64,000 bases of DNA from an uncultured Aliarcobacter sp. (GTDB taxonomy: Bacteria > Campylobacterota > Campylobacteria > Campylobacterales > Arcobacteraceae), in contig CAXXLV010000002.1 of assembly GCA_963664305.2 (NCBI GenBank), forward strand, positions 1,536,001 to 1,600,000, given 5' to 3'. The position numbers and the translations under genes are program-made. The notes beneath the pieces were generated by a model. It worked only from the letters and a program-made list of their open reading frames with translations, ran no database searches and was not told the origin of the DNA. Of this stretch, positions 3,843-40,032 are shown one piece after another. Each line of letters begins with the position of its first letter. Position 1 is the first letter of the stretch.

Positions 3843-4655
3843 TTAGTCTTCTAATAAATTTGTATTATTAATTGCATAATTCAAATATTCTAAATCAAAA
3901 TTATACTCTTTTGCTTTTTCTAAAGCTTTTTGTTTATTTTCTTCACTCAATGGATTTCTTAAATCAAAAAGAGTTCTAACAATATCTAAAATCTGGCATT
4001 TTTCTCTATTATCTTTACTACAAGCATTTACGTCATCTACAAACTCTATAATTTCTATTAAATTATTATTGAACTTCCAATATCTAAAAATTTCAGCTGT
4101 AACTTTATGTGTTGTAATTTCAACTAACTCATTTTCAATAGTTGTTATATCTATTCCAGCATCTATTTTTTCTCTAAACTCTTCTAATAAACCTCTGTTT
4201 ATAATTGTTTCTGATAATAAGAATTTGCCAGTTTCATGTAACAAACATGCCAGAATTACTTCATCTTTAAAACTTCTATCCATTTTAGTTATCCATAAAT
4301 CAACAAAACGTAGAGAGCTATGTGTAATTTTTGTAAAATTTTCACAATTTATTCCATAAGGATGTAAATCAATTTTTAAAACACTATCTATAGCCTCTTT
4401 TATTGCAACGTATATTGTAAAATTTATACCTAAAAGATTTATTACTCTTTTTACTGTTTCAATTTTAGAATTAAATCCAAATAGTGATGAATTAGAAATT
4501 TTTAATAGTGTCGCTACACATAAAGGATCTTTTTCAACAATTTTTACTAATTCATCTGCATCTTGATTAGCTTGTTTTTTAAATGTTTCTATTTCTAAAA
4601 TTGTCTCTGGTAAAGGAGGTAATGTTTCAATTTTTTCTAATATATTTTCTAACAT
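3843..4655 (-). CDS. HDOD domain protein
   Basis: LPPLP...DPLCVATLLKISNS...LLHETGK pattern. Confidence 0.85.
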   Translation of the reverse strand: MLENILEKIETLPPLPETILEIETFKKQANQDADELVKIVEKDPLCVATLLKISNSSLFGFNSKIETVKRVINLLGINFTIYVAIKEAIDSVLKIDLHPYGINCENFTKITHSSLRFVDLWITKMDRSFKDEVILACLLHETGKFLLSETIINRGLLEEFREKIDAGIDITTIENELVEITTHKVTAEIFRYWKFNNNLIEIIEFVDDVNACSKDNREKCQILDIVRTLFDLRNPLSEENKQKALEKAKEYNFDLEYLNYAINNTNLLED

Positions 4656-4737
4656 AATTTACCCTTTTGTCTGTTCTTCTAGTCAAATTATATTTAGAAA
4701 TAATATCAAAGTAGTATCATTTTAAAAAGAAGAGAAA

Positions 4738-5112
4738 TTAATTTTTCTCTTCTTCTAAAAGTTGTTTATACTCTTCGTCAGTAAAAATTCTTGATTTTGT
4801 TATAAATTGATAACCTAAATCTATTTCAAGGGAAAATGAGTTTCCAAAGGCAGCTTTTTCTTCTCTTACATCTATTGTTATAAAAGAGTGTTTAAAATAT
4901 TCAAATTGTTGTGGATCAATAAAAAATTCACATCCACAAATTTCTCCCATTTTTACATTACGGCTAGGGACATAAAAATCACCTTTTTCATAACACATAG
5001 GAGCCGTACCATCACAACAACCACCACTTTGATTAAAAACTAATTCACCATGAAGTTCTTTTAGTTTTTCTATCACTTTTGCTGCTGCATCTGTAACATC
5101 TACTCTTTTCAT
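4738..5112 (-). CDS. DUF779 family protein (aldehyde dehydrogenase-associated)
   Basis: QSGGCCDGTAPMC and FSLE motifs; directly downstream of the ALDH. Confidence 0.85.
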   Translation of the reverse strand: MKRVDVTDAAAKVIEKLKELHGELVFNQSGGCCDGTAPMCYEKGDFYVPSRNVKMGEICGCEFFIDPQQFEYFKHSFITIDVREEKAAFGNSFSLEIDLGYQFITKSRIFTDEEYKQLLEEEKN

Positions 5113-5136
5113 TTTTTATCCTTTTGAATAAAAAAA

Positions 5137-5161
5137 CCCATAGAGGAGAACTTCTATGGGT
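5137..5161 (-). terminator. Hairpin/intrinsic terminator after the aldehyde dehydrogenase
   Basis: ACCCATAGAG...CTTCTATGGGT stem; T-run follows on the minus strand. Confidence 0.6.
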
Positions 5162-5189
5162 ATTTATGGATTTATTTTCGCGTTAAATC

Positions 5190-6695
5190 CTAGAAGAAAC
5201 CTAATTTATTTTTATTGTATGAAGTTAAAATATTTTTTGTATGTCTATATGAATTTAACATCATCATATGAGTTTCTCTTCCGATTCCTGATTTTTTATA
5301 TCCTCCGAATGATGCATGAGATGGATACATGTGGTAGCAGTTAACCCATACTCTTCCAGCTTCTATACCTCTACTCATTCTATGTAATTGGTGAGCATCT
5401 CTTGACCATACACCTGAACCTAAACCATAGATTGTATCATTTGCAATTGCTAATGCTTCTGCTTCATCTTTGAAAGTTGTAACAGCAAGAACTGGTCCAA
5501 AAATCTCTTCTTGGAAGATTCTCATTTTGTTGTGACCTTTAAACAGTGTTGGTTGAATATAGAATCCATTTGGATTAGTTTCAGATTCAAATACATCTCC
5601 ACCAATTAACAGTTCAGCACCTTCTTCTTTACCAATATTGATGTATTCCATAATTTTTTCTTTTTGATTTAAAGAACATTGAGCACCCATCATATTTTCT
5701 GTATCTAAAGGATTTCCTAATTTAATTGCTTTAACTCTTTCAAGTACTCTTGCAATAAATGGCTCATAAATTGACTCTTGAATTAATGCTCTTGATGGAC
5801 AAGTACAAACTTCACCAGAGTTAAATGCGAATAATACTAAACCTTCGATTGCTTTATCAAAGAACTCATCATCAGCATCCATAATTGATTCAAAGAATAC
5901 ATTTGGAGATTTTCCACCTAACTCTAAAGTTGAAGGAATAATATTTTCTGTTGCATATTGCATAATTAATTGACCAGTTGTTGTTTCACCAGTAAATCCA
6001 ACTTTTTTAACTAATGGATGAGTAGATAAATATTTACCAATTTTTCCTCCAGCACCATTGATGATATTTACAACACCTTTTGGTAATACATCTTGAACTG
6101 CTTCCATTAATAATAAAATTGACATAGGTGTAGCAGATGCAGGTTTCATAACGATACAATTTCCAGCAGCAATAGCAGGAGCTAATTTCCAAGCAGCCAT
6201 TAATAATGGGAAATTCCAAGGAATAATTTGAGCAACAACACCATATGGCTCATAAATTTCTTGAGAAACTGTGTTTTCATCTAAATCTGAAACTGTTCCA
6301 GACTCAGCTCTAATTACAGATGCAAAATATCTAAAGTGGTCAACAACTAAAGGAACGTCTGCATTTAAAGTTTCTCTAATAGTTTTACCATTATCTAAAG
6401 TTTCAGCAATAGCTAATTTTTCTAAATTTGCTTCAATTGCATCAGCCATTTTATTTAATAAGTTACTTCTTTCAACAATTGATGTATGTTTAAAAGATTT
6501 GAATGCAGTATCAGCTGCAATAATTGCTGCTTCAACATCAGCTTCATTTGATCTTGGAATTCTTGTTAATAATGTTCCATCAACTGGAGAAATATTATCA
6601 AAGTACTCACCACTTTTTGGAGCAACCCATTCTCCACCTATAAAATTCTCATATTGAGCTTTGTATGTTGGTTTTGTATAAATCATTTTTTTCAT
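5190..6695 (-). CDS. NAD-dependent aldehyde dehydrogenase (AldB/ExaC/AcoD type)
   Basis: IIPWNFP, GFTGETTTG, LELGGKSP, GEVCTCPSR (catalytic Cys), EEIFGPV. Confidence 0.93.
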   Translation of the reverse strand: MKKMIYTKPTYKAQYENFIGGEWVAPKSGEYFDNISPVDGTLLTRIPRSNEADVEAAIIAADTAFKSFKHTSIVERSNLLNKMADAIEANLEKLAIAETLDNGKTIRETLNADVPLVVDHFRYFASVIRAESGTVSDLDENTVSQEIYEPYGVVAQIIPWNFPLLMAAWKLAPAIAAGNCIVMKPASATPMSILLLMEAVQDVLPKGVVNIINGAGGKIGKYLSTHPLVKKVGFTGETTTGQLIMQYATENIIPSTLELGGKSPNVFFESIMDADDEFFDKAIEGLVLFAFNSGEVCTCPSRALIQESIYEPFIARVLERVKAIKLGNPLDTENMMGAQCSLNQKEKIMEYINIGKEEGAELLIGGDVFESETNPNGFYIQPTLFKGHNKMRIFQEEIFGPVLAVTTFKDEAEALAIANDTIYGLGSGVWSRDAHQLHRMSRGIEAGRVWVNCYHMYPSHASFGGYKKSGIGRETHMMMLNSYRHTKNILTSYNKNKLGFF

Positions 6696-24188: not shown

Positions 24189-24221
24189 TCCACTAATCAA
24201 AAAAAATTGAAAAGGAAAATT

Positions 24222-24626
24222 ATGAAAAAAATAAGTTTAGCGGTTTTAGCAACTGCAGTTTTTGCTTTTGGACATGGAAGTGTTACACCTCAAGCAATTG
24301 ATACAAAATCATTAAAACAACTTGGAAAAGAGTGGTTAGGTGAGAATCCTTATAAAGGTGACAAAAAAGCTGAAGAGTTAGGAAAATATGCATATAGCGA
24401 AAACTGTGCTAGATGTCATGGTTTAGATGCAATTTCTGGTGGGGTTGCTCCTGATTTAAGAGCATTAGATGAAGGGATTGATGGTGATGAGTGGTTCTTA
24501 GAAAGAATCAGAGGTGGTGCTGTTAGAAATGGAAATGTTTATATGCCTCCATTTGAAGGTGTATTAACACAAGAAGCTATGTGGGCTATTAGAGCTTACT
24601 TAATTACATTACCAAAGCCTGAATAA
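24222..24626 (+). CDS. pedF: Cytochrome c-550 (PedF/ExaB-like)
   Basis: HGSVTPQAID, CARCHGL.AISGG.APDLR, YMPPF, QEAMWAIR. Confidence 0.88.
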   Translation: MKKISLAVLATAVFAFGHGSVTPQAIDTKSLKQLGKEWLGENPYKGDKKAEELGKYAYSENCARCHGLDAISGGVAPDLRALDEGIDGDEWFLERIRGGAVRNGNVYMPPFEGVLTQEAMWAIRAYLITLPKPE

Positions 24627-25486
24627 TGTTTTTCAAACTTTTTGTAATTCTATTCTTATCTGTTCTAGCAATTGCAAGAAGCATTGACCAAATAAAAGAG
24701 AGTGGAGAAATCATCATAGCAGTTTATGAGGATTTTCCTCCTTACTCTTTTAAAGAAAATGGTGTTGCAAAAGGTATAGATGTAGAAGTTGGAAAACTAA
24801 TCGCTAAATCTTTAAATGTAAAACCAGTATGGTATTTTACGGGTTTTGATGAAAATTTATCTGCAGATTTAAGAAATACAATTTGGAGAGGAAATCTTAT
24901 TCACAAAACAAAAGCTGATGTAATGCTTAGAATTCCTTATGATTACGATTATCTAAGAATGACTGATAAATACACTGGTGAATTAGAAAATGAAAAAGTA
25001 TCAATAAAAGCTCCATATCAAAGTGATAAATGGATTATTGCAACACATAAAAAAGTAATTCCAGAGATAAAAACACTTGGTATTTTTGCATATAACACTA
25101 TTGGTGTTGAAGTAGATACGCTTCCTGATTTTCATCTAATGAGTATTAGAACTATTGGTAAAAATGTAAAACACTACACAAAATTTGAAGATGCTTTTAA
25201 AGATTTTAAAGATGGGAAAATTGATGCAATTGCAGGTTTAAAAACTCAACTTCAATATCTTTTAAATTATAAAAAGAATAAAGATTTATACTATCTTACA
25301 GATGGTATTCCTATGCTTCCAACTAATCATTGGGATTTAGCAACTGCTGTTTCTAGTAGTTATAAAGACCTTAGTTATCATATTGATAATGTTGTAGAAG
25401 ATGCTTACAAAGATGGAAAAATTAAAAAAATCTTTGAAAAATTTAATGTGGAGTATCAAGAGCCGATTTCAAAAACACAAAAATAG
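24626..25486 (+). CDS. Periplasmic binding-fold protein of quinoprotein dehydrogenase clusters (PedG-like)
   Basis: VYEDFPPYSF, GIDVE, DENLSADLRN.IWRG, ADVMLRIPYD. Confidence 0.75.
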   Translation: MFFKLFVILFLSVLAIARSIDQIKESGEIIIAVYEDFPPYSFKENGVAKGIDVEVGKLIAKSLNVKPVWYFTGFDENLSADLRNTIWRGNLIHKTKADVMLRIPYDYDYLRMTDKYTGELENEKVSIKAPYQSDKWIIATHKKVIPEIKTLGIFAYNTIGVEVDTLPDFHLMSIRTIGKNVKHYTKFEDAFKDFKDGKIDAIAGLKTQLQYLLNYKKNKDLYYLTDGIPMLPTNHWDLATAVSSSYKDLSYHIDNVVEDAYKDGKIKKIFEKFNVEYQEPISKTQK

Positions 25487-25495
25487 GAGATTTAT

Positions 25496-26245
25496 ATGAA
25501 AAAAATATTTTTACTGGTTTTATCTTTTTTGATAATTCAAAATTTATACGCCAATAATCCAGTAGCTTCTCCTACTTTTGACTCACTATTAAGTGAATTT
25601 ATCAAAAATGACAAATATATTTTTGATGATAAAAATATAACTATCAAAGTACCAAGTTTTGCTGACAATCCAATCCAAGTGCCAATCTTCGTAGATGCTA
25701 AAAAAATAAAAAATGCAAAAAGAGTTATTGTTTTTGCAGATTTAAATCCAATCCCAAAAATCATTGATATGAATTTAGAAAATGGTCTTTTACCTATTAT
25801 TTCTGTAAATATAAAAGTAGCACAAGAGACACCTCTACGAGCATTAGTTTTAGATGATAAAAATATTTGGCATATTGGAAGTAAAAATATAAAAAGTTTT
25901 GGTGGAGGTTGTTCTGTTTCAAGTGCAGCTTCAGGAGATTCTGATTATGACAAACTTTTAGGTAAAGGTAAAGCTGAAATTTTTAAAAATGAAAATAGTT
26001 TTAGAATAAAAAGTTCAATATTTCATCCTATGGAAACAGGTTTAATATTTGGAAATACTGAATTTTATATAAATAAAATAGTTCTAAAAGCTAACAATAA
26101 AGAGTTTGGAGAAGTTTTAGTTTATTCTGCTGTTAGTGAAAATCCAAGATTTATTTTTGAAACAAATATAGATGAAAAAGAGTACAAACTTGAATTTATG
26201 GATACAGATTCAAATAAATTTATTCAAACAATAACTAAGGAATAA
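25496..26245 (+). CDS. Quinoprotein dehydrogenase-associated SoxYZ-like carrier (fused)
   Basis: DLNPIP, GGGCS swinging-arm Cys, HPMETG, SENP. Confidence 0.85.
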   Translation: MKKIFLLVLSFLIIQNLYANNPVASPTFDSLLSEFIKNDKYIFDDKNITIKVPSFADNPIQVPIFVDAKKIKNAKRVIVFADLNPIPKIIDMNLENGLLPIISVNIKVAQETPLRALVLDDKNIWHIGSKNIKSFGGGCSVSSAASGDSDYDKLLGKGKAEIFKNENSFRIKSSIFHPMETGLIFGNTEFYINKIVLKANNKEFGEVLVYSAVSENPRFIFETNIDEKEYKLEFMDTDSNKFIQTITKE

Positions 26246-26247
26246 AA

Positions 26248-27150
26248 ATGAGATTTTTAATTCTTTTTTATTGTACATTTTTATTTTCTGCCCAGTTTGA
26301 TTATAAGTTAAAACCTATAAAATTAAATGAAAATAGCTACTATTTTTATGGAAAAGAAGAATACTTTTCAACAAAAAATGGTGGAGATATAGCAAACACT
26401 TCATTTATAATCACAAAAAACAGTGTTATTTTAATAGATACCGGAAGTTCAGAACTTTATGGTGAGCAGATTAAAAAGGCTATTTCTAAAATCACTTCAA
26501 AACCTATAAAATATATCATAAACACGCACCATCATCCTGACCATTTTTTAGGAAATAGTGCTTTTATAAATAGCAATATTTATGCTTCAAAATTTACAAA
26601 AGAAGAGATAGAAAACAATGGAGAATTGTATATTACAAATCTAACAAATTTAGTTAATGAAGCAATATCAAATACTAAAGTAAAAGCTCCAAATCAAATA
26701 TTAAATTCAAAAGAATTAGATTTTGATGGTTACAAGTTGAAAGTTTTATATTTTGATGGACATACAAAAAGTGATGTTGCTATTTATGATGAAAAAACAA
26801 AAATTCTTTATGCCTCTGATTTAATTTTTAATAAAAGAACAATGGCTACACCACATGCAAATATAAATAAGTGGATAGCCTCTTTAAAAGAGTTAAAAAA
26901 TATAGATTTTAAACTCACAGTGCCAGGACATGGAATTGCTTTTGAAAATAAAAGTGTAATTGATGAAAATATTAATTATTTAAAATATTTGGATAATACT
27001 CTAAAAAATAGTGCAAAAAAAGGACTTGATATATTTGAAATTTTAAATCTTCCTATTCCAAAAGAGTTCAATAACTTTACAATGTTTAAAGAAGAGTTTG
27101 AAAGAAGTGTTATAAATCTTTATCCAACTTATGAAAAAGAGTTAAATTAA
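26248..27150 (+). CDS. Quinoprotein relay system zinc metallohydrolase (SoxH-like MBL fold)
   Basis: NGGDIAN, IDTG, THHHPDHFLGN, GHT..D, VPGHG. Confidence 0.85.
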   Translation: MRFLILFYCTFLFSAQFDYKLKPIKLNENSYYFYGKEEYFSTKNGGDIANTSFIITKNSVILIDTGSSELYGEQIKKAISKITSKPIKYIINTHHHPDHFLGNSAFINSNIYASKFTKEEIENNGELYITNLTNLVNEAISNTKVKAPNQILNSKELDFDGYKLKVLYFDGHTKSDVAIYDEKTKILYASDLIFNKRTMATPHANINKWIASLKELKNIDFKLTVPGHGIAFENKSVIDENINYLKYLDNTLKNSAKKGLDIFEILNLPIPKEFNNFTMFKEEFERSVINLYPTYEKELN

Positions 27151-29779: not shown

Positions 29780-30589
29780 TTATTTAATTACTATTTTTGC
29801 GTCTTTTCTTAATTCGTCTGTTAATTCTTTTACTTTTTTATTATACGTATTTCCTAATAAAATTTGAGAAATATTTCCTTCTACTTCATTGAAAGTTAAA
29901 GATTTTGCAGGAATTTTATCTTTTAAATAAATAATATGATAACCAAATTGTGTTTTTGTTGGAACTTTAGAATATGCACCTTTTGCTAATGCTTTTGCTG
30001 CAGTTGAAAATTCTGGAACCATTTGATCTGCTGCAAATTTACCTAAATATCCACCATTTTTTTTACCAGTTGGGTCTTCAGTTTTAGCTAAAGCTAATTC
30101 TTTAAATTTTTCTTCTTTGTTTGTAGCTTTATCTAATTGTTTGATGATATCAAAAGCTTCTTTTTCAGTTTTTACTAAAATGTGACTAGCTTCTAAAGTT
30201 TCTGGCATAACAAATTTTTCTTTGTTTTTTTCATAGAAATCTTTTTTTTCTGCATCTGTAAATTTGATTTTTTCAATTTGATTTTTTTGCCATACTTGGA
30301 AAGCTAAATCTTCTTTGATTTTTGTAATTGTTTCAACATATTGAGGATCTTTTTCAATTCCTTCTTCAATTGCTTTTTTAGCTAATAATTTTCTATTGAT
30401 TATTTGCTCTAAAACTTGTTTTTTTGCATTCTCTGGTAATTTATCAAAATCGATTCTTGGATCTTGTAAAGCCATTGAGATATCTTGTTTAGTGATTTGC
30501 TCACCATCAACTGTAGCATAAAAATCAGCTGCATTTAAAGTTGTAATTAAAGCAACTGAAGCAACGAAACTAGACACTATTTTTTTCAT
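29780..30589 (-). CDS. Periplasmic parvulin PPIase (Peb4/Cbf2/PrsA-like)
   Basis: ASHILV, GGYLG, MVPEF, TQFGYHII; signal peptide; upstream of fba. Confidence 0.9.
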   Translation of the reverse strand: MKKIVSSFVASVALITTLNAADFYATVDGEQITKQDISMALQDPRIDFDKLPENAKKQVLEQIINRKLLAKKAIEEGIEKDPQYVETITKIKEDLAFQVWQKNQIEKIKFTDAEKKDFYEKNKEKFVMPETLEASHILVKTEKEAFDIIKQLDKATNKEEKFKELALAKTEDPTGKKNGGYLGKFAADQMVPEFSTAAKALAKGAYSKVPTKTQFGYHIIYLKDKIPAKSLTFNEVEGNISQILLGNTYNKKVKELTDELRKDAKIVIK

Positions 30590-30630
30590 TTTATTCCTTG
30601 AAATTATATTTGGCGTATTTTATCTTTTCA

Positions 30631-30648
30631 TAGTTAATAAATAGTTGA
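30631..30648 (+). repeat. attL core TAGTTAATAAATAGTTGA
   Basis: Exact copy at 40015-40032; flanking sequences differ. Confidence 0.88.
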
Positions 30649-30784
30649 AAAAATTACTTTTTCTTTGTAATTATTTTGTATTCAAATTATAGATAAATTC
30701 GCACTTTCTACACATTTTCTAAAAAGCCTTACATATCTTTTAAATATAAAGATTATGTAAATATTTTTCACAAAAATTGCACAC

Positions 30785-31042
30785 CTATTTTATCTTTTCT
30801 TCTAGAAGTTTTATTTTTTCTTCTAAAGCTTTAATTGTTGGAATCATTTTACCAACTACTTCATCTAAATTCGTATATCCTTCTAGATTACCTTTGATTT
30901 CATTTTCTTTTTGTAAGCCCAATTCAATCAATTTAATTAATTCAGGTTTTGTATCTATCCAGTTATAAATTGTTCCAACAGATATATTAATTCTATCTGC
31001 AATTAATTCTTTTTCTTTTCTCGTTAGTTCTTTAATATACAT
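30785..31042 (-). CDS. Phage repressor-like HTH protein with C-terminal coiled coil
   Basis: ELIADRINISVGTIYNW HTH; divergent from structural operon; SD GGAG before ATG 31042. Confidence 0.7.
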   Translation of the reverse strand: MYIKELTRKEKELIADRINISVGTIYNWIDTKPELIKLIELGLQKENEIKGNLEGYTNLDEVVGKMIPTIKALEEKIKLLEEKIK

Positions 31043-31354
31043 TTTTCTCTCCTTTCCGTACAAATATTAAATTATATACAAATATTAAGCTTAATTTAAT
31101 TATTAAACTATTACAATTCATTAATTTAAATATTGAATTTTATTCAACTATTGAATTACTGTTTATAATTTAGATTAAAAGATTTAAATGCAAACTACAT
31201 GCAAATTCTATCAAAAATCTAATTATTGTACAAATTCTAATTATTTTAATATTGAATTTACTCCCTCTGTAAGTTCAGTTAGTCAAATGAGGGGAAAGAC
31301 ATTTTAGTCGTAGCCGATTGGTATTAAATCGATTAAATAATAAAAGGAAAAAAT

Positions 31355-31735
31355 ATGTCAACTGAAAAAACTACAAACAACTTAGTAAAACCAATTCAAT
31401 TAACTGAACATGGTTGTTATTTATATGGTACTTTAGATGGTATCGACTTTACTGCTTCTGGTGTATTCCCTGAAACTAAAAAACCTTATGGTGCTAGTGT
31501 TAAACTTAAATTTATTATGAAAACATTAAGTCATAAAGAATTAAATGGTGTAAAAATTCCAGTTCAAAATGCTAGGTCTGTAATTGTTAAATTAAATACA
31601 ACAGATGACAAATTACCTGCTTTAGTTCAAAAATATAATGAATTAGTAAGTAAAAACTTATTTGTAAATTATATTCCTAAAGATGGAGATGTTTTAAATA
31701 TTGATGATGAAAATGAGATTATTGAAATAAAGTAA
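31355..31735 (+). CDS. Putative phage ssDNA-binding protein (pV-like)
   Basis: Size and position as first gene before the coat genes; beta-rich; strong SD; no motif proof. Confidence 0.5.
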   Translation: MSTEKTTNNLVKPIQLTEHGCYLYGTLDGIDFTASGVFPETKKPYGASVKLKFIMKTLSHKELNGVKIPVQNARSVIVKLNTTDDKLPALVQKYNELVSKNLFVNYIPKDGDVLNIDDENEIIEIK

Positions 31736-32056
31736 TTTCTTAATGTTGGGGCATTGAGTTTTAATTCCGTACACTCTTGTAAGTCCCCCTCCATTATATA
31801 AGACTCGATTTTTAAAAATACAGAAGATATCTCGGCTCGTTAGATATGTAAGACTGTAATTTTTAAAAATGAGTAAACAAACGAAGTGCGTTAGGCTTCA
31901 AATGATGACTATGAAAAGTCTAGCTATTTGCTACTAGATGGCTCTTTGCACGAATAGAAAAAAATATAAATATTGTTGAGTACATATTTTTTGTGTATTC
32001 AATTTTCTTTATATATGTGTTTGTAGCACATAACTTTAATTTTACGGAGTCACGTT

Positions 32057-32173
32057 ATGGATTTAACAGGTTTAGTTTTTAATACTTCTGATGCTATGGA
32101 AGTTGGGGTTTTAGTTTTAATTGGTACTGGAGTAATCTGGGGTATTAGAAAAGCTATTGGTATGGCTAAGTAA
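32057..32173 (+). CDS. Major coat protein candidate (pVIII-like), 38 aa, no signal peptide: MDLTGLVFNTSDAMEVGVLVLIGTGVIWGIRKAIGMAK
   Basis: SD GGAG; acidic N-terminus, hydrophobic core, basic C-terminus; followed by a hairpin; not in ORF track. Confidence 0.75.
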   Translation: MDLTGLVFNTSDAMEVGVLVLIGTGVIWGIRKAIGMAK

Positions 32174-32190
32174 GGGGGATTTTCTCCCTT
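32172..32190 (+). terminator. Hairpin after the major coat gene
   Basis: AAGGGGGA-TTT-TCTCCCTT then T-rich tail; Ff phages have a terminator after gene VIII. Confidence 0.6.
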
Positions 32191-32226
32191 ATTTCTATTT
32201 CTAAATTTTTTTATAAAGGTTTACAA

Positions 32227-32349
32227 GTGGAAATATTACAAACTTTTACTATCTCTTTCTCTAACTTATCAATTCTTGGAACTGCTCTAATTTTATATCT
32301 AGCTGTTCTTTGGTCTGTAAAAAAAACAATTGAAATAATCTGGGCTTAA
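32227..32349 (+). CDS. Small single-TM virion protein candidate, 40 aa (pVII/pIX-like)
   Basis: GTG start, SD AAGG; MEILQTFTISFSNLSILGTALILYLAVLWSVKKTIEIIWA. Confidence 0.6.
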   Translation: MEILQTFTISFSNLSILGTALILYLAVLWSVKKTIEIIWA

Positions 32350-32350
32350 T

Positions 32351-32494
32351 ATGTATTCATCTACTGATATCGCAACTTATTTAAATCTTTCTTTACAAGA
32401 TTATAGTTTTTTAATGGCTTTAACTGGTTCTTTGTGTGGTTTTACTTTTTTGTTCTTTGCTTGTTATTTAGCTATTGAAATTGGGAGAAAATAA
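32351..32494 (+). CDS. Small single-TM virion protein candidate, 47 aa
   Basis: MYSSTDIATYLNLSLQDYSFLMALTGSLCGFTFLFFACYLAIEIGRK; 1-nt gaps to both neighbouring ORFs. Confidence 0.6.
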   Translation: MYSSTDIATYLNLSLQDYSFLMALTGSLCGFTFLFFACYLAIEIGRK

Positions 32495-32495
32495 T

Positions 32496-32666
32496 ATGAA
32501 ATTAGTTCTATTACTTTTAGTTTTTATTGTTCCATCTTTTGCAAATGATTTAATTATTGTTGCAATAACTCCAGATGATACTTTTAATTTTTTCTTTTCA
32601 ATTTATGTAAATATATCTTTAGTTCTAGCTACTCTTTTTGGTGCTATGGCTCTTATTAGGTCTTAA
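32496..32666 (+). CDS. Small phage membrane protein, 56 aa, with signal peptide
   Basis: MKLVLLLLVFIVPSFA-ND..., C-terminal TM segment; SD GGAG. Confidence 0.6.
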   Translation: MKLVLLLLVFIVPSFANDLIIVAITPDDTFNFFFSIYVNISLVLATLFGAMALIRS

Positions 32667-32668
32667 TT

Positions 32669-34125
<1,457 letters not shown>

Positions 34126-34129
<4 letters not shown>

Positions 34130-34539
34130 TTAATTTAATTTATGCTATTGGTACATATTTAATTACTAAGTTTGGAAAGACTGTTGCTCTTTCTATTATG
34201 TTTGCAACTAATAAAGCTTTGTTGTTTTCTTTAATAGTTTTGTTTATAACAACTCTTTTTAACCTTTTAATGACTACTTATGAAACTGTACAATCAATCT
34301 TCACTAAAATTGAATCTCTTGCTAATGGTTCTTCTATATCTGGATTATCTGATTGTTTTAATATTATTGTTTCATCAACAATCAATGCAACTGGTTTCTT
34401 TGAAGCTTTTAATGTTGTGGGTCCTACATTGTTTTTAGTTTACTTTACTTACTTCAATGTTTTTCTACTAGGTTTTTCTATTGATATCTATAGATTTATA
34501 GATAAATCTGTTACAGAATTTGCTCTTATTGTGAAGTAG
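34126..34539 (+). CDS. Hydrophobic virion protein (pVI-like)
   Basis: Multi-TM; lies between pIII and pI; TTGA overlap. Confidence 0.65.
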
Positions 34540-34545
34540 TTTAAC

Positions 34546-35637
34546 ATGATTCAATTTTGTACGGGAATACCAGGAAGTGGAAAAAGCTATTATGGAATTT
34601 TTAATATAGCTATTCACTTTGCTAAAGATTTAAAAGATAATAAAAAATTTAAATCTTTTGCTCTTAGTGATACTAAATATAAAACTTGTTTAACTAACTT
34701 GAATGAGTTTAAATTTGAAAAATTTGATAATGTTAAAGAATTAGATTTTACTCAATTCAAAGTTATATTAACTAGATTACATAATCTTTATAAAATAGGT
34801 AAATCAGATACAGAATTACAAGAATATGTAAAAGATGAAGATTTCTTTAATACTTTGATTGTTTTTGATGAATGTCAAAATTTCTTAAATAAAGATGATG
34901 AAGTTCTAGTGTGGTGGCTTTCATATCATAGACATTTCCATCAAGATATTATATTAATTACTCAAGATTTACCTTTAGTTCATAAAAAATATAAATCTTT
35001 TACAGAGTTTTATTATAAAGCAATTCCAAGCTCTAGAAAACTTTTTAATTCTCACATGATTTACCATCAATTTACAGGACACCAATTATTCCAAACTCAA
35101 AAAGCTAATACTAAAAAATTACCTATTGTAAAAGAAATGTTTTCTTTATATGGTTCTGGAGAAAACAATAAACAAAAATCTCTTGTAGTTCACTTCTTAG
35201 TTTTTTCATTCTTCTTATTAATTCTTTTATTTATTTTTGCATATTTTTTTGTTTCTTCAATGACTAAAGATGAACCTAAAAAAGATAATAAACCTTTACC
35301 AGTTCAAACACATAATATTAATTCTATTCCAACACCAGTAAAAAAAATTGATGAATTTGAAAGTGCAACTTACTATGAAATATTTTGTAATAAAAATCTT
35401 TGTTTTGTAAATAACAATGTTTTTACTAGAGAATATTTATTAAATATCTTGAGTAAAGAATATAAAACAAGATTTATTCAAATTACTAAAAATAAATATT
35501 ATCTAGTGACTACCGATAAATATAACCTATTTGAAAAAAAGGAGAAAATTAAAGATGAAAATAGTATTAATTCTGGGTTTGATTTTAAGTTGTTTAATAG
35601 CCAACCCCAACCAACAACAGAACCTAAATCAAAATAA
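34546..35637 (+). CDS. Morphogenesis ATPase pI / Zot-like
   Basis: GIPGSGKS Walker A, IVFDECQ Walker B, HRH...ILITQ, TM segment after the ATPase. Confidence 0.9.
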   Translation: MIQFCTGIPGSGKSYYGIFNIAIHFAKDLKDNKKFKSFALSDTKYKTCLTNLNEFKFEKFDNVKELDFTQFKVILTRLHNLYKIGKSDTELQEYVKDEDFFNTLIVFDECQNFLNKDDEVLVWWLSYHRHFHQDIILITQDLPLVHKKYKSFTEFYYKAIPSSRKLFNSHMIYHQFTGHQLFQTQKANTKKLPIVKEMFSLYGSGENNKQKSLVVHFLVFSFFLLILLFIFAYFFVSSMTKDEPKKDNKPLPVQTHNINSIPTPVKKIDEFESATYYEIFCNKNLCFVNNNVFTREYLLNILSKEYKTRFIQITKNKYYLVTTDKYNLFEKKEKIKDENSINSGFDFKLFNSQPQPTTEPKSK

Positions 35638-36826
35638 TTTAGAGTATGTAGAAACTGATTTAAAATCTTTTTCTATTGAAGTATTATCTAGTTTAGATAA
35701 AACATTCATCATTCAAGATGATTTGCTAAAAGATATAGTTGTTTACTATAAACCAGAACAAAATAATCTTAACTTCTTAATTCAAGTTTTAAATAACAAT
35801 GATTATGAAATTAAGATATCTAATAATGTTTACTATATTTTAAAAAAGAAAGAGTTAGAAGTTCTAAAAGAGGATTTAGTTGTTAATACTATCCAACTTC
35901 ATAAAATAGATTTTGAATATATAAAAACTCTTTTTGCAGTTTATAAAGATATAGAATATACTTTTATTCCATCTTCTAAACTTTTAATTTTAAAATCTAC
36001 TCAAGCTGATTATGAAAATATTAAAAAGATTGTTTCTTATGTTGATAACACTCCAAAACAATTAAAAGTTAAAATCACTATTCTTGATACAAACCTAAAC
36101 AAAATAAAAGAGTATGGAACAGAATTAACTCAAAATATAAATCAATCATCTAATTTTTTCTTTAATCTTTTAGCATATCCTTTTCAAGTATCTAGTAATA
36201 TAAACTCTACTCAAAAAGATAATTTTACTTCATTTGTTAAACTTCTTAATCAAAATAAAATTACTGAACTTGTTGCAAGTCCAACTTTAACACTTTCAGA
36301 TAATGAAGCAGTTGCTTTTAATCTTGTAAAAAATATTCCTTATCTTTCAGGCTCTACAACTGTTGATGATAATAACACTAAAACAACAAATACATACACT
36401 TACAAAGATATAGGTTTAAAAATCTCAATTACACCTAAAATTTATAATGATGAAGTTCAAATTAACTTAGAACTTACAAGTGAGTCAATCTTGGATAGTT
36501 CAAACACTCCTAAAACTTCAAAATCATTTATTAAACAAGTTTTTTCATTAGCTAAAAATAGATTATTTGTTTTAACTGGTATCAATCAAACTCAAAAATA
36601 TGAAGATACTCAAAAGACTACTTTTTTAGGAGATATTCCTTTTTTAGGTTGGTTATTTAAAACAGATACAAATGATACAACTTCTTCAAATTTAACTATT
36701 TTACTTGAACTAATAAATGAAGATGATTACTCAACAAATGACTTTAATGTGATAGTTCCAAATAAAAAAATTCAATCTTTGGAACATGAAAAAAGAGTTA
36801 ATGAAATCTTAGGTTTGAAAAATTAA
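35555..36826 (+). CDS. Secretin (pIV-like phage extrusion channel)
   Basis: SPTLTL.DN, YKDIGLKISITPKI, LGDIPFLGWLFK secretin motifs; signal peptide from ATG 35555. Confidence 0.88.
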   Translation: MKIVLILGLILSCLIANPNQQQNLNQNNLEYVETDLKSFSIEVLSSLDKTFIIQDDLLKDIVVYYKPEQNNLNFLIQVLNNNDYEIKISNNVYYILKKKELEVLKEDLVVNTIQLHKIDFEYIKTLFAVYKDIEYTFIPSSKLLILKSTQADYENIKKIVSYVDNTPKQLKVKITILDTNLNKIKEYGTELTQNINQSSNFFFNLLAYPFQVSSNINSTQKDNFTSFVKLLNQNKITELVASPTLTLSDNEAVAFNLVKNIPYLSGSTTVDDNNTKTTNTYTYKDIGLKISITPKIYNDEVQINLELTSESILDSSNTPKTSKSFIKQVFSLAKNRLFVLTGINQTQKYEDTQKTTFLGDIPFLGWLFKTDTNDTTSSNLTILLELINEDDYSTNDFNVIVPNKKIQSLEHEKRVNEILGLKN

Positions 36827-36841
36827 TTTAAAGGTTAAAAA

Positions 36842-37045
36842 ATGAAACAATCAAGAATACTAAAAATGAAAATTCTTATTTTAAAAACAAATATTTTTAA
36901 AACTATTAAAGATTATGATTTAAAACCTTCTTTTATTTATCATCCTTTTACAAAACAGTTTATTGGAAAGTGTATTTTAGATTGCAAATTATTAGAATTA
37001 AAAAAATTAGAAAATGAATTAAAAAATTTAGCCACGACTTTTTAA
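36842..37045 (+). CDS. Hypothetical 67-aa basic phage protein
   Basis: SD AAGG; co-oriented after pIV; no recognised motif. Confidence 0.5.
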   Translation: MKQSRILKMKILILKTNIFKTIKDYDLKPSFIYHPFTKQFIGKCILDCKLLELKKLENELKNLATTF

Positions 37046-37179
37046 ATCATAAAATTTAAAAAGTGTGGGAACTATTGGAAGATATCTAACCTATTAATGA
37101 ATATTTACCCAATAGTTTAACGAGCAAATGGTTTACCTTTTATAGGTTTTAAATTGAGTGGAGTAACAAAAACAACTTT

Positions 37180-37224
37180 CTCACAAGTGGCAGCTTGTCT
37201 GCCACTGTGAGGAAGTCTTGATTA
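37180..37224 (+). other. Candidate rolling-circle origin (GC-rich hairpin plus TCTTGATTA)
   Basis: CTCAC-A-AGTGGCAG/CTGCCACT-GTGAG stem at 37180-37211, directly upstream of rep. Confidence 0.55.
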
Positions 37225-37264
37225 CTTTTAAAAAAGTTACTACACCTAAATAGGAGAAATAGAA

Positions 37265-38578
37265 ATGTACGGAATTACTAAAGAAGATATCCAAGTTATT
37301 GATATAAAACTAGAAGAACAAAGAAAATATATTACAAGTAGATTTTTTGATTTTGGGGACGAGTCAAAGTCAGCTTTAGAGTTCACATACTCTGCAAACT
37401 TAAATCCTAAAAAGTATTTCGCAGAAATGAATAACAGAATTAACAGTATCTTTGATTATGCAAGGGAATTAAATTTAAAACCAGTATTTTGCACAATTAC
37501 AGCACCCTCAAAATATCACAAATGTAATGTAAATGGAGAGTTAAAAATCAATCCAAATGAAACAGCAAAAGAACTAACACAAATATTTAATAAATTTACA
37601 AATCTAAGGATTTTCCAAAAGATGAAAAAACAATTAGGACATGGGCTTATTTACTTTAGAGTTTATGAACCTCATAAATCAGGAGTTCCACATTTACACG
37701 CTATGTTATTTGTTCCAACTGATTATATACTAGATATAAAAAAGAAATTCTATGAATATTTTACAAATAAAGTAAAATGGGGAAATAATAGAAAATCTTT
37801 AGATTTTAAATATACTTGGTATAACTCTGCAGGTGGTGCAATAGCTTATATTATGAAGTATGTAACTAAGACTTTTAAAAATGAAAGTGATAAATCAACT
37901 CAATATGCTTCATATTGGTATATTAAACATAACATTAGAAGATTTCTTTGTTCAAGGACTTTAGCACCTCTTACAATTTATAGAAAAATTAGATACTTCT
38001 TTAAAAACCAAAAAAACGATTATCTAAAAGTTACTGAACTAATTAAGAATAATCAAATACATAGATTATTTGAAAATACAACTTACTCATATATGCGATT
38101 TAACTATGAAACTGGAGAAATTGAAGATATCACAGTTTGGCAAAAAAATACAGATTTAATTCTAAGAAGTAGAATAAAACTAAATGAAACTTTCAAACTA
38201 GAATATAAGAAAAAAGAACATAAAAAGGCTCTTTCTGTATTTGTAAATGACTTTGTAAAATATGTACATAGTGAAACTTTAAATAAATTTGTTTTACTTC
38301 CAGTAATACCAAGTAAACTAAAAGATTACCAACTAAATAACTATTACCATATTTTAGAAAATACAGATATTGATTCCCTTGATTTAGTACATTTTGAATT
38401 AGTTAAAAATGAAATGATTAAAAGAGGATTCCTAAATCAAACACCAACCAATATGAATGAATTTATAAAAGATTTTAATTTTAATCCCTTTATGAGTTCA
38501 ATCGAAAAAGTTAAATTTTCTAGAGTATTTGAACATGATTTAAACATTCCGTTTGTATCACATCAAAATTTATTTTAA
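37265..38578 (+). CDS. HUH rolling-circle replication initiator (gpA-like, two Tyr)
   Basis: FCTITAPSKYH (motif I), EPHKSGVPHLH (HUH), AYIMKYVTKT (YxxKY). Confidence 0.88.
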   Translation: MYGITKEDIQVIDIKLEEQRKYITSRFFDFGDESKSALEFTYSANLNPKKYFAEMNNRINSIFDYARELNLKPVFCTITAPSKYHKCNVNGELKINPNETAKELTQIFNKFTNLRIFQKMKKQLGHGLIYFRVYEPHKSGVPHLHAMLFVPTDYILDIKKKFYEYFTNKVKWGNNRKSLDFKYTWYNSAGGAIAYIMKYVTKTFKNESDKSTQYASYWYIKHNIRRFLCSRTLAPLTIYRKIRYFFKNQKNDYLKVTELIKNNQIHRLFENTTYSYMRFNYETGEIEDITVWQKNTDLILRSRIKLNETFKLEYKKKEHKKALSVFVNDFVKYVHSETLNKFVLLPVIPSKLKDYQLNNYYHILENTDIDSLDLVHFELVKNEMIKRGFLNQTPTNMNEFIKDFNFNPFMSSIEKVKFSRVFEHDLNIPFVSHQNLF

Positions 38579-38667
38579 GGATTAAAAAAAGACAAAAAAG
38601 AGTTATTTTCTTGTTATTTTATTTTCAATAGTTATTTACTATTATAAATTAATATAAAGGAAAATTT

Positions 38668-38951
38668 ATGTCGTATGATTCTTTTAAAAATTTGGATTTA
38701 ATTCCAACTTTGTTAGAGAAACTTTTTTTTTAGAGGAAAAAATAAAATTATTGGAAAATAATCTTATTCAAACTCCTGATTTAACAAAAAGAAAAAATGT
38801 GAGAGAATATCTTGATATCTCTGAATCAACTTTAAATAATATGTTTAAAGATGGAAGATTAAAACAAGGTTATCACTATCATAAATCTTTTAAGAATAAT
38901 AGGATTAAGATTGTATTTGTAGAAAGTGCGATTAAGGAGTTGAAAAAATGA
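38668..38951 (+). pseudogene. Excisionase-like HTH gene interrupted by a T9 tract (frameshifted or phase-variable)
   Basis: SD AAGGA plus ATG 38668; stop at codon 22 (TAG 38731); -1 frame continues LEEKIKLLENN...VREYLDISESTL (HTH) and overlaps the integrase start. Confidence 0.7.
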
Positions 38952-39964
38952 CTTTTTCTAATCGTAATGGAAAATTATATGTTTCGATAAATGGTGTAAG
39001 AAAATCAACTAAATTAAAATATTCAAAAGAGAATATTAAAAAGTTTAAATCTTATTATCAAGATGAAGAGTTCTTTAACAAATTTAATATTAATAAATCT
39101 GTTCCAACTATTGTAGATTTATGTTATGAAGTTCTTGAGATAAAAGAAAAGCATTTAAAACGAAATTCTTATAGGTGTTATCTTGCTTTAATTGAAAGTA
39201 GAATAGTTCCATATTTTAAAAAAATGTATGTTACTGAATTAAAACCTATAGATGTTTATAACTGGTTTAATACTTTTAGTTCTTCTCAAACTTTAAATAT
39301 CTGCTATACAATCCTAAAAAGTGCTTTTGAAAGAGCTATTATAAAAAACTATATTTCTTCAAGTCCTTTTATAATTAAAAGACCTAAAATAAAAACAAAT
39401 TATAAAATTAATCCTTTCACTTTTGATGAAGCTAAAAAAATTATTGAATTTGCTCCACATAATTTAAAAAACTTTTTTGGTTTTGCTTTCTTTACTGGGG
39501 CAAGAACTGGAGAAATATTTGGTTTAAAGTGGAATAATGTAGATTTTGAAAACTTCAATATAAAAATTGATTCTCAAATTACAATGGGTTGTATAGATAC
39601 TCCTAAAACTTTATCTAGTGAAAGAGTTATTGATATGCTGCCACAATGTGAATATTACTTAAAAGAACAATTTAAAATTACTGGAGCTTATGAATTTGTT
39701 TTTTTAAATGAGCATAATAATTACTATACTTCGACTTCTGTTTTTAAACATATTTGGGTTCAGCTCCTTAAAGATTTAAAATTAGAATATAGAAGTGTTT
39801 ATCAAACAAGACACACTTTTGCTAGTAATATGATTTCAGGTGGAGAGAATCCTCTTTGGGTTTCACAAATGTTAGGACATAAATCTCTAAATACTACTTT
39901 AACTAAGTATTCAAGATATATAAAAAGAAATGAAATAAGAAAATATACATTTTTAGATTCTTAA
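38948..39964 (+). CDS. Tyrosine recombinase / phage integrase
   Basis: TGARTGE (R), PKT (K), YQTRHTFAS, LGH, Y. Confidence 0.93.
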   Translation: MTFSNRNGKLYVSINGVRKSTKLKYSKENIKKFKSYYQDEEFFNKFNINKSVPTIVDLCYEVLEIKEKHLKRNSYRCYLALIESRIVPYFKKMYVTELKPIDVYNWFNTFSSSQTLNICYTILKSAFERAIIKNYISSSPFIIKRPKIKTNYKINPFTFDEAKKIIEFAPHNLKNFFGFAFFTGARTGEIFGLKWNNVDFENFNIKIDSQITMGCIDTPKTLSSERVIDMLPQCEYYLKEQFKITGAYEFVFLNEHNNYYTSTSVFKHIWVQLLKDLKLEYRSVYQTRHTFASNMISGGENPLWVSQMLGHKSLNTTLTKYSRYIKRNEIRKYTFLDS

Positions 39965-40014
39965 ATCCAATTTTTTAACAGTTTAAAATTAGGGATTGTT
40001 TTTTGGGGATTTTG

Positions 40015-40032
40015 TAGTTAATAAATAGTTGA
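40015..40032 (+). repeat. attR core TAGTTAATAAATAGTTGA
   Basis: 50 nt after the integrase stop; exact copy of 30631-30648. Confidence 0.88.

Follow-up and report, generated by a model that had tools for sequence, protein, structure and literature searches.

RstC of RS1 is an antirepressor of RstR of CTXphi, an example of the derepression of a mobile element through protein-protein contact. The Stl repressors of phage-inducible chromosomal islands sense helper-phage proteins, so that derepression may be brought about by the protein of a co-resident element. We know of no homologous segment common to repressor and inducer in either system. In the filamentous prophages Pf4 and Pf5, the excisionase XisF4 and the repressor Pf4r jointly set the lysogeny decision; their genes are adjacent and divergent, and the two proteins repress each other's transcription (PMC7379572). 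In Bacillus, SinR is controlled by SinI, SlrA, and SlrR, partners bearing a look-alike of the oligomerization helix of the regulator (PMC3917956; mimicry in 10.1101/2025.11.23.689978), and the SinR-SlrR pair joins two DNA-binding proteins (PMC3917956). The arbitrium antirepressor AimX disables the phage repressor AimC through its oligomerization domain (10.1101/2025.11.23.689978). Here we describe a 9.4-kb integrated inovirus (filamentous prophage) with att repeats in a stretch of 64,000 nucleotides, hereafter the window, from an uncultured Aliarcobacter sp. (GCA_963664305.2, CAXXLV010000002.1, positions 1,536,001 to 1,600,000; contig C2 of a 2.78-Mb genome with 27% G+C). The C-terminal tail of its likely repressor resembles the N-terminal head of its likely excisionase (Xis).

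The locus differs from each of the systems above. The repressor and xis-like genes of the window are separated by 7.6 kb, one at each end of the prophage, and encode a common helix, whereas the Pf4 genes are neighbors. The first-pass annotation had proposed that excision and derepression are coupled in one switch; coupling does exist in a filamentous phage, Pf4, but it operates there by mutual transcriptional repression rather than through a shared coil (PMC7379572). The SinI/SinR interaction uses helical hooks, serves host biofilm control, and is proven (PMC3917956), whereas the window has a heptad coil, a predicted binding, and a partner that is likely a recombination directionality factor. 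AimX is a dedicated small protein of tailed Bacillus phages and not an excisionase that carries a DNA-binding domain as well (10.1101/2025.11.23.689978). The repressor/Xis pair would work like SinI/SlrR-SinR and AimX-AimC by analogy, while being a member of neither. In the literature searched, most subscription papers being outside its scope, no description was found of an excisionase and a repressor that have a coil in common. We propose, at a confidence just short of even and from sequence comparison, that the tail of the repressor is a mimic of the Xis coil and that, through mixed coiled coils, each of the two proteins would titrate the other. Should the coils mix, repression and excision would be coupled at the protein level by one short, swappable helix, a coupling different from that of Pf4 at the transcription level and from dedicated antirepressors such as AimX. 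It would also offer a simple account of what keeps prophages integrated and of how elements in the same host trigger or block one another.

In the predicted structure of the repressor, helices span residues 8–17, 22–56, and 59–84, and in that of the intact Xis paralogue encoded elsewhere in the genome, a single helix precedes a winged helix-turn-helix (HTH) domain. The mirrored domain order noted in the first-pass annotation (HTH-coil versus coil-HTH) is thus borne out by the predicted structures. Its other observations on the pair also hold: the nonapeptide LEEKIKLLE is identical in both proteins (residues 73–81 of the repressor, 30800–30826 on the minus strand), its codons differ by five nucleotides in three codons, all synonymous, and NLD stands upstream of it in both. 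The exact nonapeptide occurs at these two places alone in the six frames of the genome, and copies with one mismatch occur twice, in the second, intact xis-like gene and outside any open reading frame (ORF). Its core, LExK[IV]xxLE, resembles the coil motif R-h-x-x-h-E (PMC3653964) and is found in 7 of the 2,412 host proteins. Since the core is generic in this way, the nonapeptide alone would prove little. The likeness could then be convergence or chance, short Lys/Glu/Leu/Ile-rich coils of an AT-rich genome meeting in a generic g-a-d-e pattern with no regulatory meaning. We regard this explanation as improbable in view of the family-wide comparison below.

The first-pass annotation had held that a chance match would disappear in homologues. 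The match is instead family-wide, extends beyond nine residues, and takes several tail and head types. Of 33 repressors and 50 Xis proteins, 27 and 43, respectively, contain LExK[IVML]xxLE and 26 and 47 contain NL[DE], while the exact nonapeptide is confined to 4 of the repressors and 3 of the Xis proteins. Alignment of the tail and head profiles by hhalign gives a probability of 92.7% over 31 columns at 42% identity with one gap. The alignment runs from a non-heptad F/Y-x-N-L-D/E start through the coil, and this start and the length of about 31 residues argue against convergence on a heptad pattern. A hidden Markov model (HMM) of the Xis head places eight repressor rows, the best at 18.7 bits (E = 1.7e-4), ahead of every one of the 2,412 host proteins. 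These features point to a look-alike oligomerization segment common to both proteins, as in mimic antagonism of the SinI/SinR type.

The strongest evidence is that different tails mirror different Xis heads. The repressor L113 should be noted. Its tail EKVDLILKRMEFLEEEM mirrors EKLDLIIKKLTVLEDEI, the head of the Xis of its own element (L052, linked by flanking synteny); the C-terminal end of this repressor reads DEKVDLILKRMEFLEEEM and the N-terminal start of the cognate Xis EEKLDLIIKKLTVLEDEI. The tail of L063 matches the heads of L032 and L030, of another type, with scores of 71 and 67. For the enrichment test, a fixed panel of 41 heads was compared with 1,052 host coil windows using 17 tail clusters, and 250 host coils served for comparison. 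The best Xis head outscores every one of the 1,052 host windows in 6 of the 17 tail clusters; if a single host window is allowed to go unbeaten, the number rises to 10 of the 17. Among the 250 host coils, the two proportions are 4.4% and 7.6%. None of 14 control repressor ends beats all host coils, and one beats all but at most one. This contrast also speaks against convergence, though the null consists mostly of long host coils rather than short terminal ones. In a later search, 16 of 50 rows were left out (11 unparsed or longer than 140 residues, and 5 because their tails were short), and another 3 had been known before. The remaining 31 tails were new; 4 of them outscore every host coil (about 1.4 expected), and 6 leave no more than one host coil unbeaten (about 2.4 expected). 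Clear new matches are P0223 (with L042), P0228 (with L053), and P0235.

Several observations weigh against the proposed titration, and a first group of them bears on the strength of the likeness itself. Besides the generic core motif, the margin of the head HMM is thin (18.7 bits, with two host proteins at 15.6 and 15.1), and when the search is reversed, the top rank goes to a host protein (14.5 versus 14.3 bits). Host proteins thus score near the true partners in both directions, as convergence would have it. An hhalign comparison of the whole proteins misses the tail/head match. The later search is a modest test, two of its passing tails being short basal ends, and the enrichment counts overstate the effect because the tail clusters are kin. 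A complex prediction with two repressor and two intact Xis chains and alignments (score 0.09, mark 0.32, controls not folded) counts neither way.

A second group concerns the matching within one element. Among the 41 heads, the cognate one comes first for the window, second for G056, and third for G033, whereas the other five of the eight cognate pairs rank 7, 15, 20, 31, and 32. The test at the level of these eight pairs is not significant (permutation p 0.07–0.11; gapped, 0.064; Mantel p 0.19). When four head classes are formed, chosen after the sequences had been seen, none of the 24 permutations does better than the diagonal, and with four tentative pairs added (P0015/P0045, P0130/P0055, P0132/P0052, and P0150/P0075, joined by equal length of the longest contig, related, and of one class), the 12 pairs give p 0.013. 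Some tails fit the Xis of another element better than their own: the G033 tail scores 52 with the L069 head and 40 with its own, and the G019 tail 46 with the window head and 22–25 with its own. Such preferences would fit mosaic shuffling, a module that is simply borrowed, or cross-talk.

The second of these is the chief rival of mutual titration, and we consider it unlikely, if a serious contender. The Xis coil would have been picked up repeatedly, or inherited once, for self-oligomerization of the repressor; the segments would be homologous, with no mutual regulation by binding. The pair-level result and the tails that prefer a foreign head are in keeping with it, as is the exchange of tails between near-identical HTH cores (P0029 versus P0003–P0007; L020 versus P0015/P0019/P0021; L058/P0013 versus L064 versus L022; the underlying repressor tree leaves out three unparsed rows and has few columns). 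However, several head types are each mirrored, including a helix-start Ile-Pro motif, and a neutral donor need not be tracked in this way. A DNA relic of the sequence upstream of xis, which inspection by eye had suggested, was sought in the tails and rejected, as all six tests against 1,200 host upstream regions are not significant (fraction 0.09–0.78). Moreover, near-identical parallel coiled coils that share a cell tend to mix, so that mixing is expected even of a borrowed module.

The distribution of the two proteins has points on both sides. All eight elements that have the repressor family together with a coil-bearing Xis carry an extended tail, and in nine elements with an integrase but without such an Xis, the repressor ends are short or unrelated. 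Adding to the opposing points above, this contrast largely tracks host family, L100 and L111 have extended tails with no Xis found, and seven inoviruses combine a coil-bearing Xis with a CI-type repressor that has no such tail. Because the Xis coil occurs without this repressor, in those seven inoviruses and in a second element of the genome, and because tails are exchanged between cores, the repressor is probably the mimic and the Xis coil the original, which would serve Xis self-assembly.

Under mutual titration, repressor in excess in the lysogen would mop up stray Xis, and excision would be blocked. Upon induction, Xis in excess would break repressor oligomers and loosen repression, and the switch would thus have a threshold. 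Once the element is excised as a circle, its tail sequence would adjoin attP-int-xis and could move with that module. Extended to the inoviruses of Arcobacteraceae as a group, the reading becomes more tentative and, in our judgment, rather doubtful: an exchangeable repressor tail would copy the excisionase coil, the two proteins would sequester each other directly, and the tail could in addition detect or block Xis from other integrative elements resident in the cell. If true, this would be a protein-mimicry link of immunity and excision that includes cross-talk between unrelated mobile elements.

The reading frame of xis in the window should be noted, since the first-pass annotation took its run of nine T (T9) as the gate of the switch. 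Read from ATG 38668, the gene does not have the xis motif in frame, and translation ends after 21 residues at the stop codon 38731–38733. The four related contigs that span the site, from three studies, all read in frame, their T run being interrupted, and all nine other members of the 90% cluster of the window Xis keep the coil in frame, as KITFLE. A T run of at least eight is found in none of 53 xis-like matches (first 120 bases; one duplicate and one doubtful row counted). A long simple repeat kept among relatives, as in phase-variable loci, is absent here. The T9 gate is rejected on the evidence of these relatives, whose frame is open and whose run is broken up, and an evolved phase-variable switch turning the Xis coil on and off, already largely refuted at the family level, is very improbable. 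In its favor, the T9 run is present in both same-sample contig sets, few runs in the genome reach a length of 10 (3, versus 104 of length 9), and MutL has no genome match over the cut-off. In addition, slippage of E. coli RNA polymerase is possible where at least seven T follow one another (PMC6260861). With such slippage and no MutL found, some Xis leak or reversion is possible. A 984-residue MutS-like frame in the genome falls below the MutS1 cut-off. Length variants of the run were looked for in contigs only, which drop rare variants. An assembly error was considered and set aside, as same-sample contigs show no difference over 30500–38861, but they are possibly the assembly's own source.

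The xis allele is best read as a strain-specific frameshift, and because of it the prophage is likely locked in this strain. The lock could be bypassed by slippage on the T run or by the second integrated element supplying its Xis. This element of 5.2 kb (L001:7710–12949; G000:C2, about 1,252,700–1,257,950) has an 18-bp repeat at its borders and carries an integrase, an intact xis-like gene, Rep, a small pV-like gene, and a CopG-like regulator; a pI gene, a secretin gene, and an HTH-coil repressor were not found in it. Its Xis is identical to the window Xis at 68 of 94 residues (72%). The element may be a satellite, and it may also supply Xis in trans.

The xis-like product is likely an excisionase, that is, a recombination directionality factor. 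The top three fold matches of the intact paralogue model are all excisionases, with Z scores of 5.4–6.4 that are modest, being below 8: Klebsiella 2KVV (Z 6.4, root-mean-square deviation (rmsd) 5.2, 63 residues aligned), Pukovnik Xis 4J2N (Z 5.6, rmsd 2.0, 51 aligned), and GIsul2 Xis 8C3T (Z 5.4, rmsd 2.8, 52 aligned). The Xis proteins described here have in common with these MerR-like winged-helix excisionases the winged-HTH core and a gene directly upstream of a tyrosine integrase; unlike them, they have an additional N-terminal helix of 25 residues (residues 9–33 in the paralogue model). Fifty xis-like loci matches lie directly upstream of an integrase (51 heads including the window). HTH_17 is above the cut-off in the homologue L030 and below it in the window Xis. 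Foldseek with Xis gave no match at E < 0.001, and Xis has no match in plasmids. Other small coil-bearing genes upstream of an integrase (L069:1255–1482, L080:2182–2412, and L082:2030–2257), which the Xis profile does not detect, likely form another Xis family; the single member scanned has no informative Pfam match.

The role of the repressor is suggested by its position, divergent from the phage operon. Matches of its HTH are weak (Pfam HTH_23, E = 0.043; phrog_4779, E = 0.025), its similarity to a CI-repressor cluster (Atlas 0.87) is a lead only, and fold searches gave weak homeodomain/HTH rows and generic long helices, nothing better. Neither repressor nor Xis matches the phage collection, and single-protein viral scans are empty. 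The start is most likely ATG 31042, not TTG 31063, judging from the ribosome-binding site and P0002. Aliarcobacter butzleri carries near-identical repressors that NCBI names TetR/AcrR regulators, so the family is widespread and misannotated.

The prophage spans 30631–40032 from att to att (Table 1), and the 18-bp att repeat has just two copies genome-wide. A leftward HTH gene is followed rightward by pV-like, coat-like, pIII-like, pVI-like, pI/Zot, pIV secretin, Rep, xis-like, and tyrosine integrase genes. As in inoviruses, a pI/Zot-like ATPase is present, and a rolling-circle initiator and a secretin lie within a genome of about 10 kb. Pfam cut-offs are passed by pI, the secretin, Rep, and the integrase, whereas the names of the repressor and the small structural genes rest on position and weak matches. 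The pV-like protein has no Pfam or PHROG match. The ORFs of the coat region (32057–32666) fit small single-helix coat proteins, with no family match for the three scanned (the 38-residue coat ORF left out), and a terminator-like hairpin lies at 32168–32194. Homologues bear the names Aliarcobacter and Arcobacter. An attP joint was not seen in contigs, which is uninformative either way, and promoter scans gave no score above shuffles.

Table 1. Positions of the prophage features in the window
Feature	Position	Strand	Basis or remark
attL core, 18-bp direct repeat	30631..30648	+	Identical to 40015-40032
Likely repressor, 85 residues: N-terminal HTH, long helix, C-terminal coil	30785..31042	-	Divergent from phage operon
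Repressor tail, residues 52-83, Xis-head-like	30794..30889	-	hhalign; contains LEEKIKLLE
Two 12-bp direct repeats (31059, 31077), candidate operators	31059..31088	+	Just upstream of repressor start; promoter scan not above chance
Likely single-stranded DNA-binding (pV-like) protein	31355..31735	+	Position and size; homologues at equivalent spot in related inoviruses
Likely major coat gene	32057-32173	+	Translation; 38 residues
Three small hydrophobic ORFs	32227-32349, 32351-32494, 32496-32666	+	Translations
Likely pIII-like adsorption protein, Gly/Ser/Thr repeats	32669..34129	+	phrog_6320, E 7.8e-5
Likely pVI-like membrane protein	34126..34539	+	Position and hydrophobicity
pI/Zot-family assembly ATPase	34546..35637	+	PF05707, 61.3 bits (cut-off 20.3); phrog_197
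pIV secretin	35531..36826	+	PF00263; phrog_1012
Rolling-circle replication initiator	37265..38578	+	PF05840, PF23343
xis-like gene, N-terminal coil and winged HTH	38668..38951	+	Weak excisionase PHROGs; frameshifted in this strain; overlaps integrase start
T9 run at frameshift	38723..38731	+	Stop codon 38731-38733; unconserved in relatives
LEEKIKLLE codons of xis-like gene	38730..38756	+	Downstream frame, out of frame with ATG here
Tyrosine integrase	38948..39964	+	PF00589, PF14659; phrog_1
attR core	40015..40032	+	Second copy of attL repeat

The region between rep and xis is a variable cargo slot. Close relatives have 1.0–2.3 kb of additional DNA there (window 38578–38681; runs X3 and X4), and L020 has additional genes at this slot as well. 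In L111, an insertion sequence (transposase and ATPase helper, 4310–6219), presumably IS21-like, lies between rep and a truncated integrase at the expected site of xis, and L111 is likely another prophage locked in place.

Short members of the repressor family (60–70 residues) are solo chromosomal genes in many Campylobacterales (L006–L019, L114–L123, L128–L132), with no inovirus marker in the stretches fetched. L124, L125, L126, L140, L149, L151, and L153 have the same HTH core with another C-terminal helical pair, with ends like AEIKARV or FYKIMAE. These ends look like those of CI-type inovirus repressors, for example L143, suggesting further domain shuffling.

Among the 33 proteins of 19.9–50.8 kb, no drug-resistance family is over the cut-off. 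The window contains a host cluster associated with a quinoprotein (pyrroloquinoline quinone) dehydrogenase at 24207–27150, in which cytochrome c-550 PedF and the zinc metallohydrolase TIGR04558 are above the cut-off and a SoxYZ-like carrier is just below it. The gene of the metallo-β-lactamase fold near the prophage is a quinoprotein-relay hydrolase.

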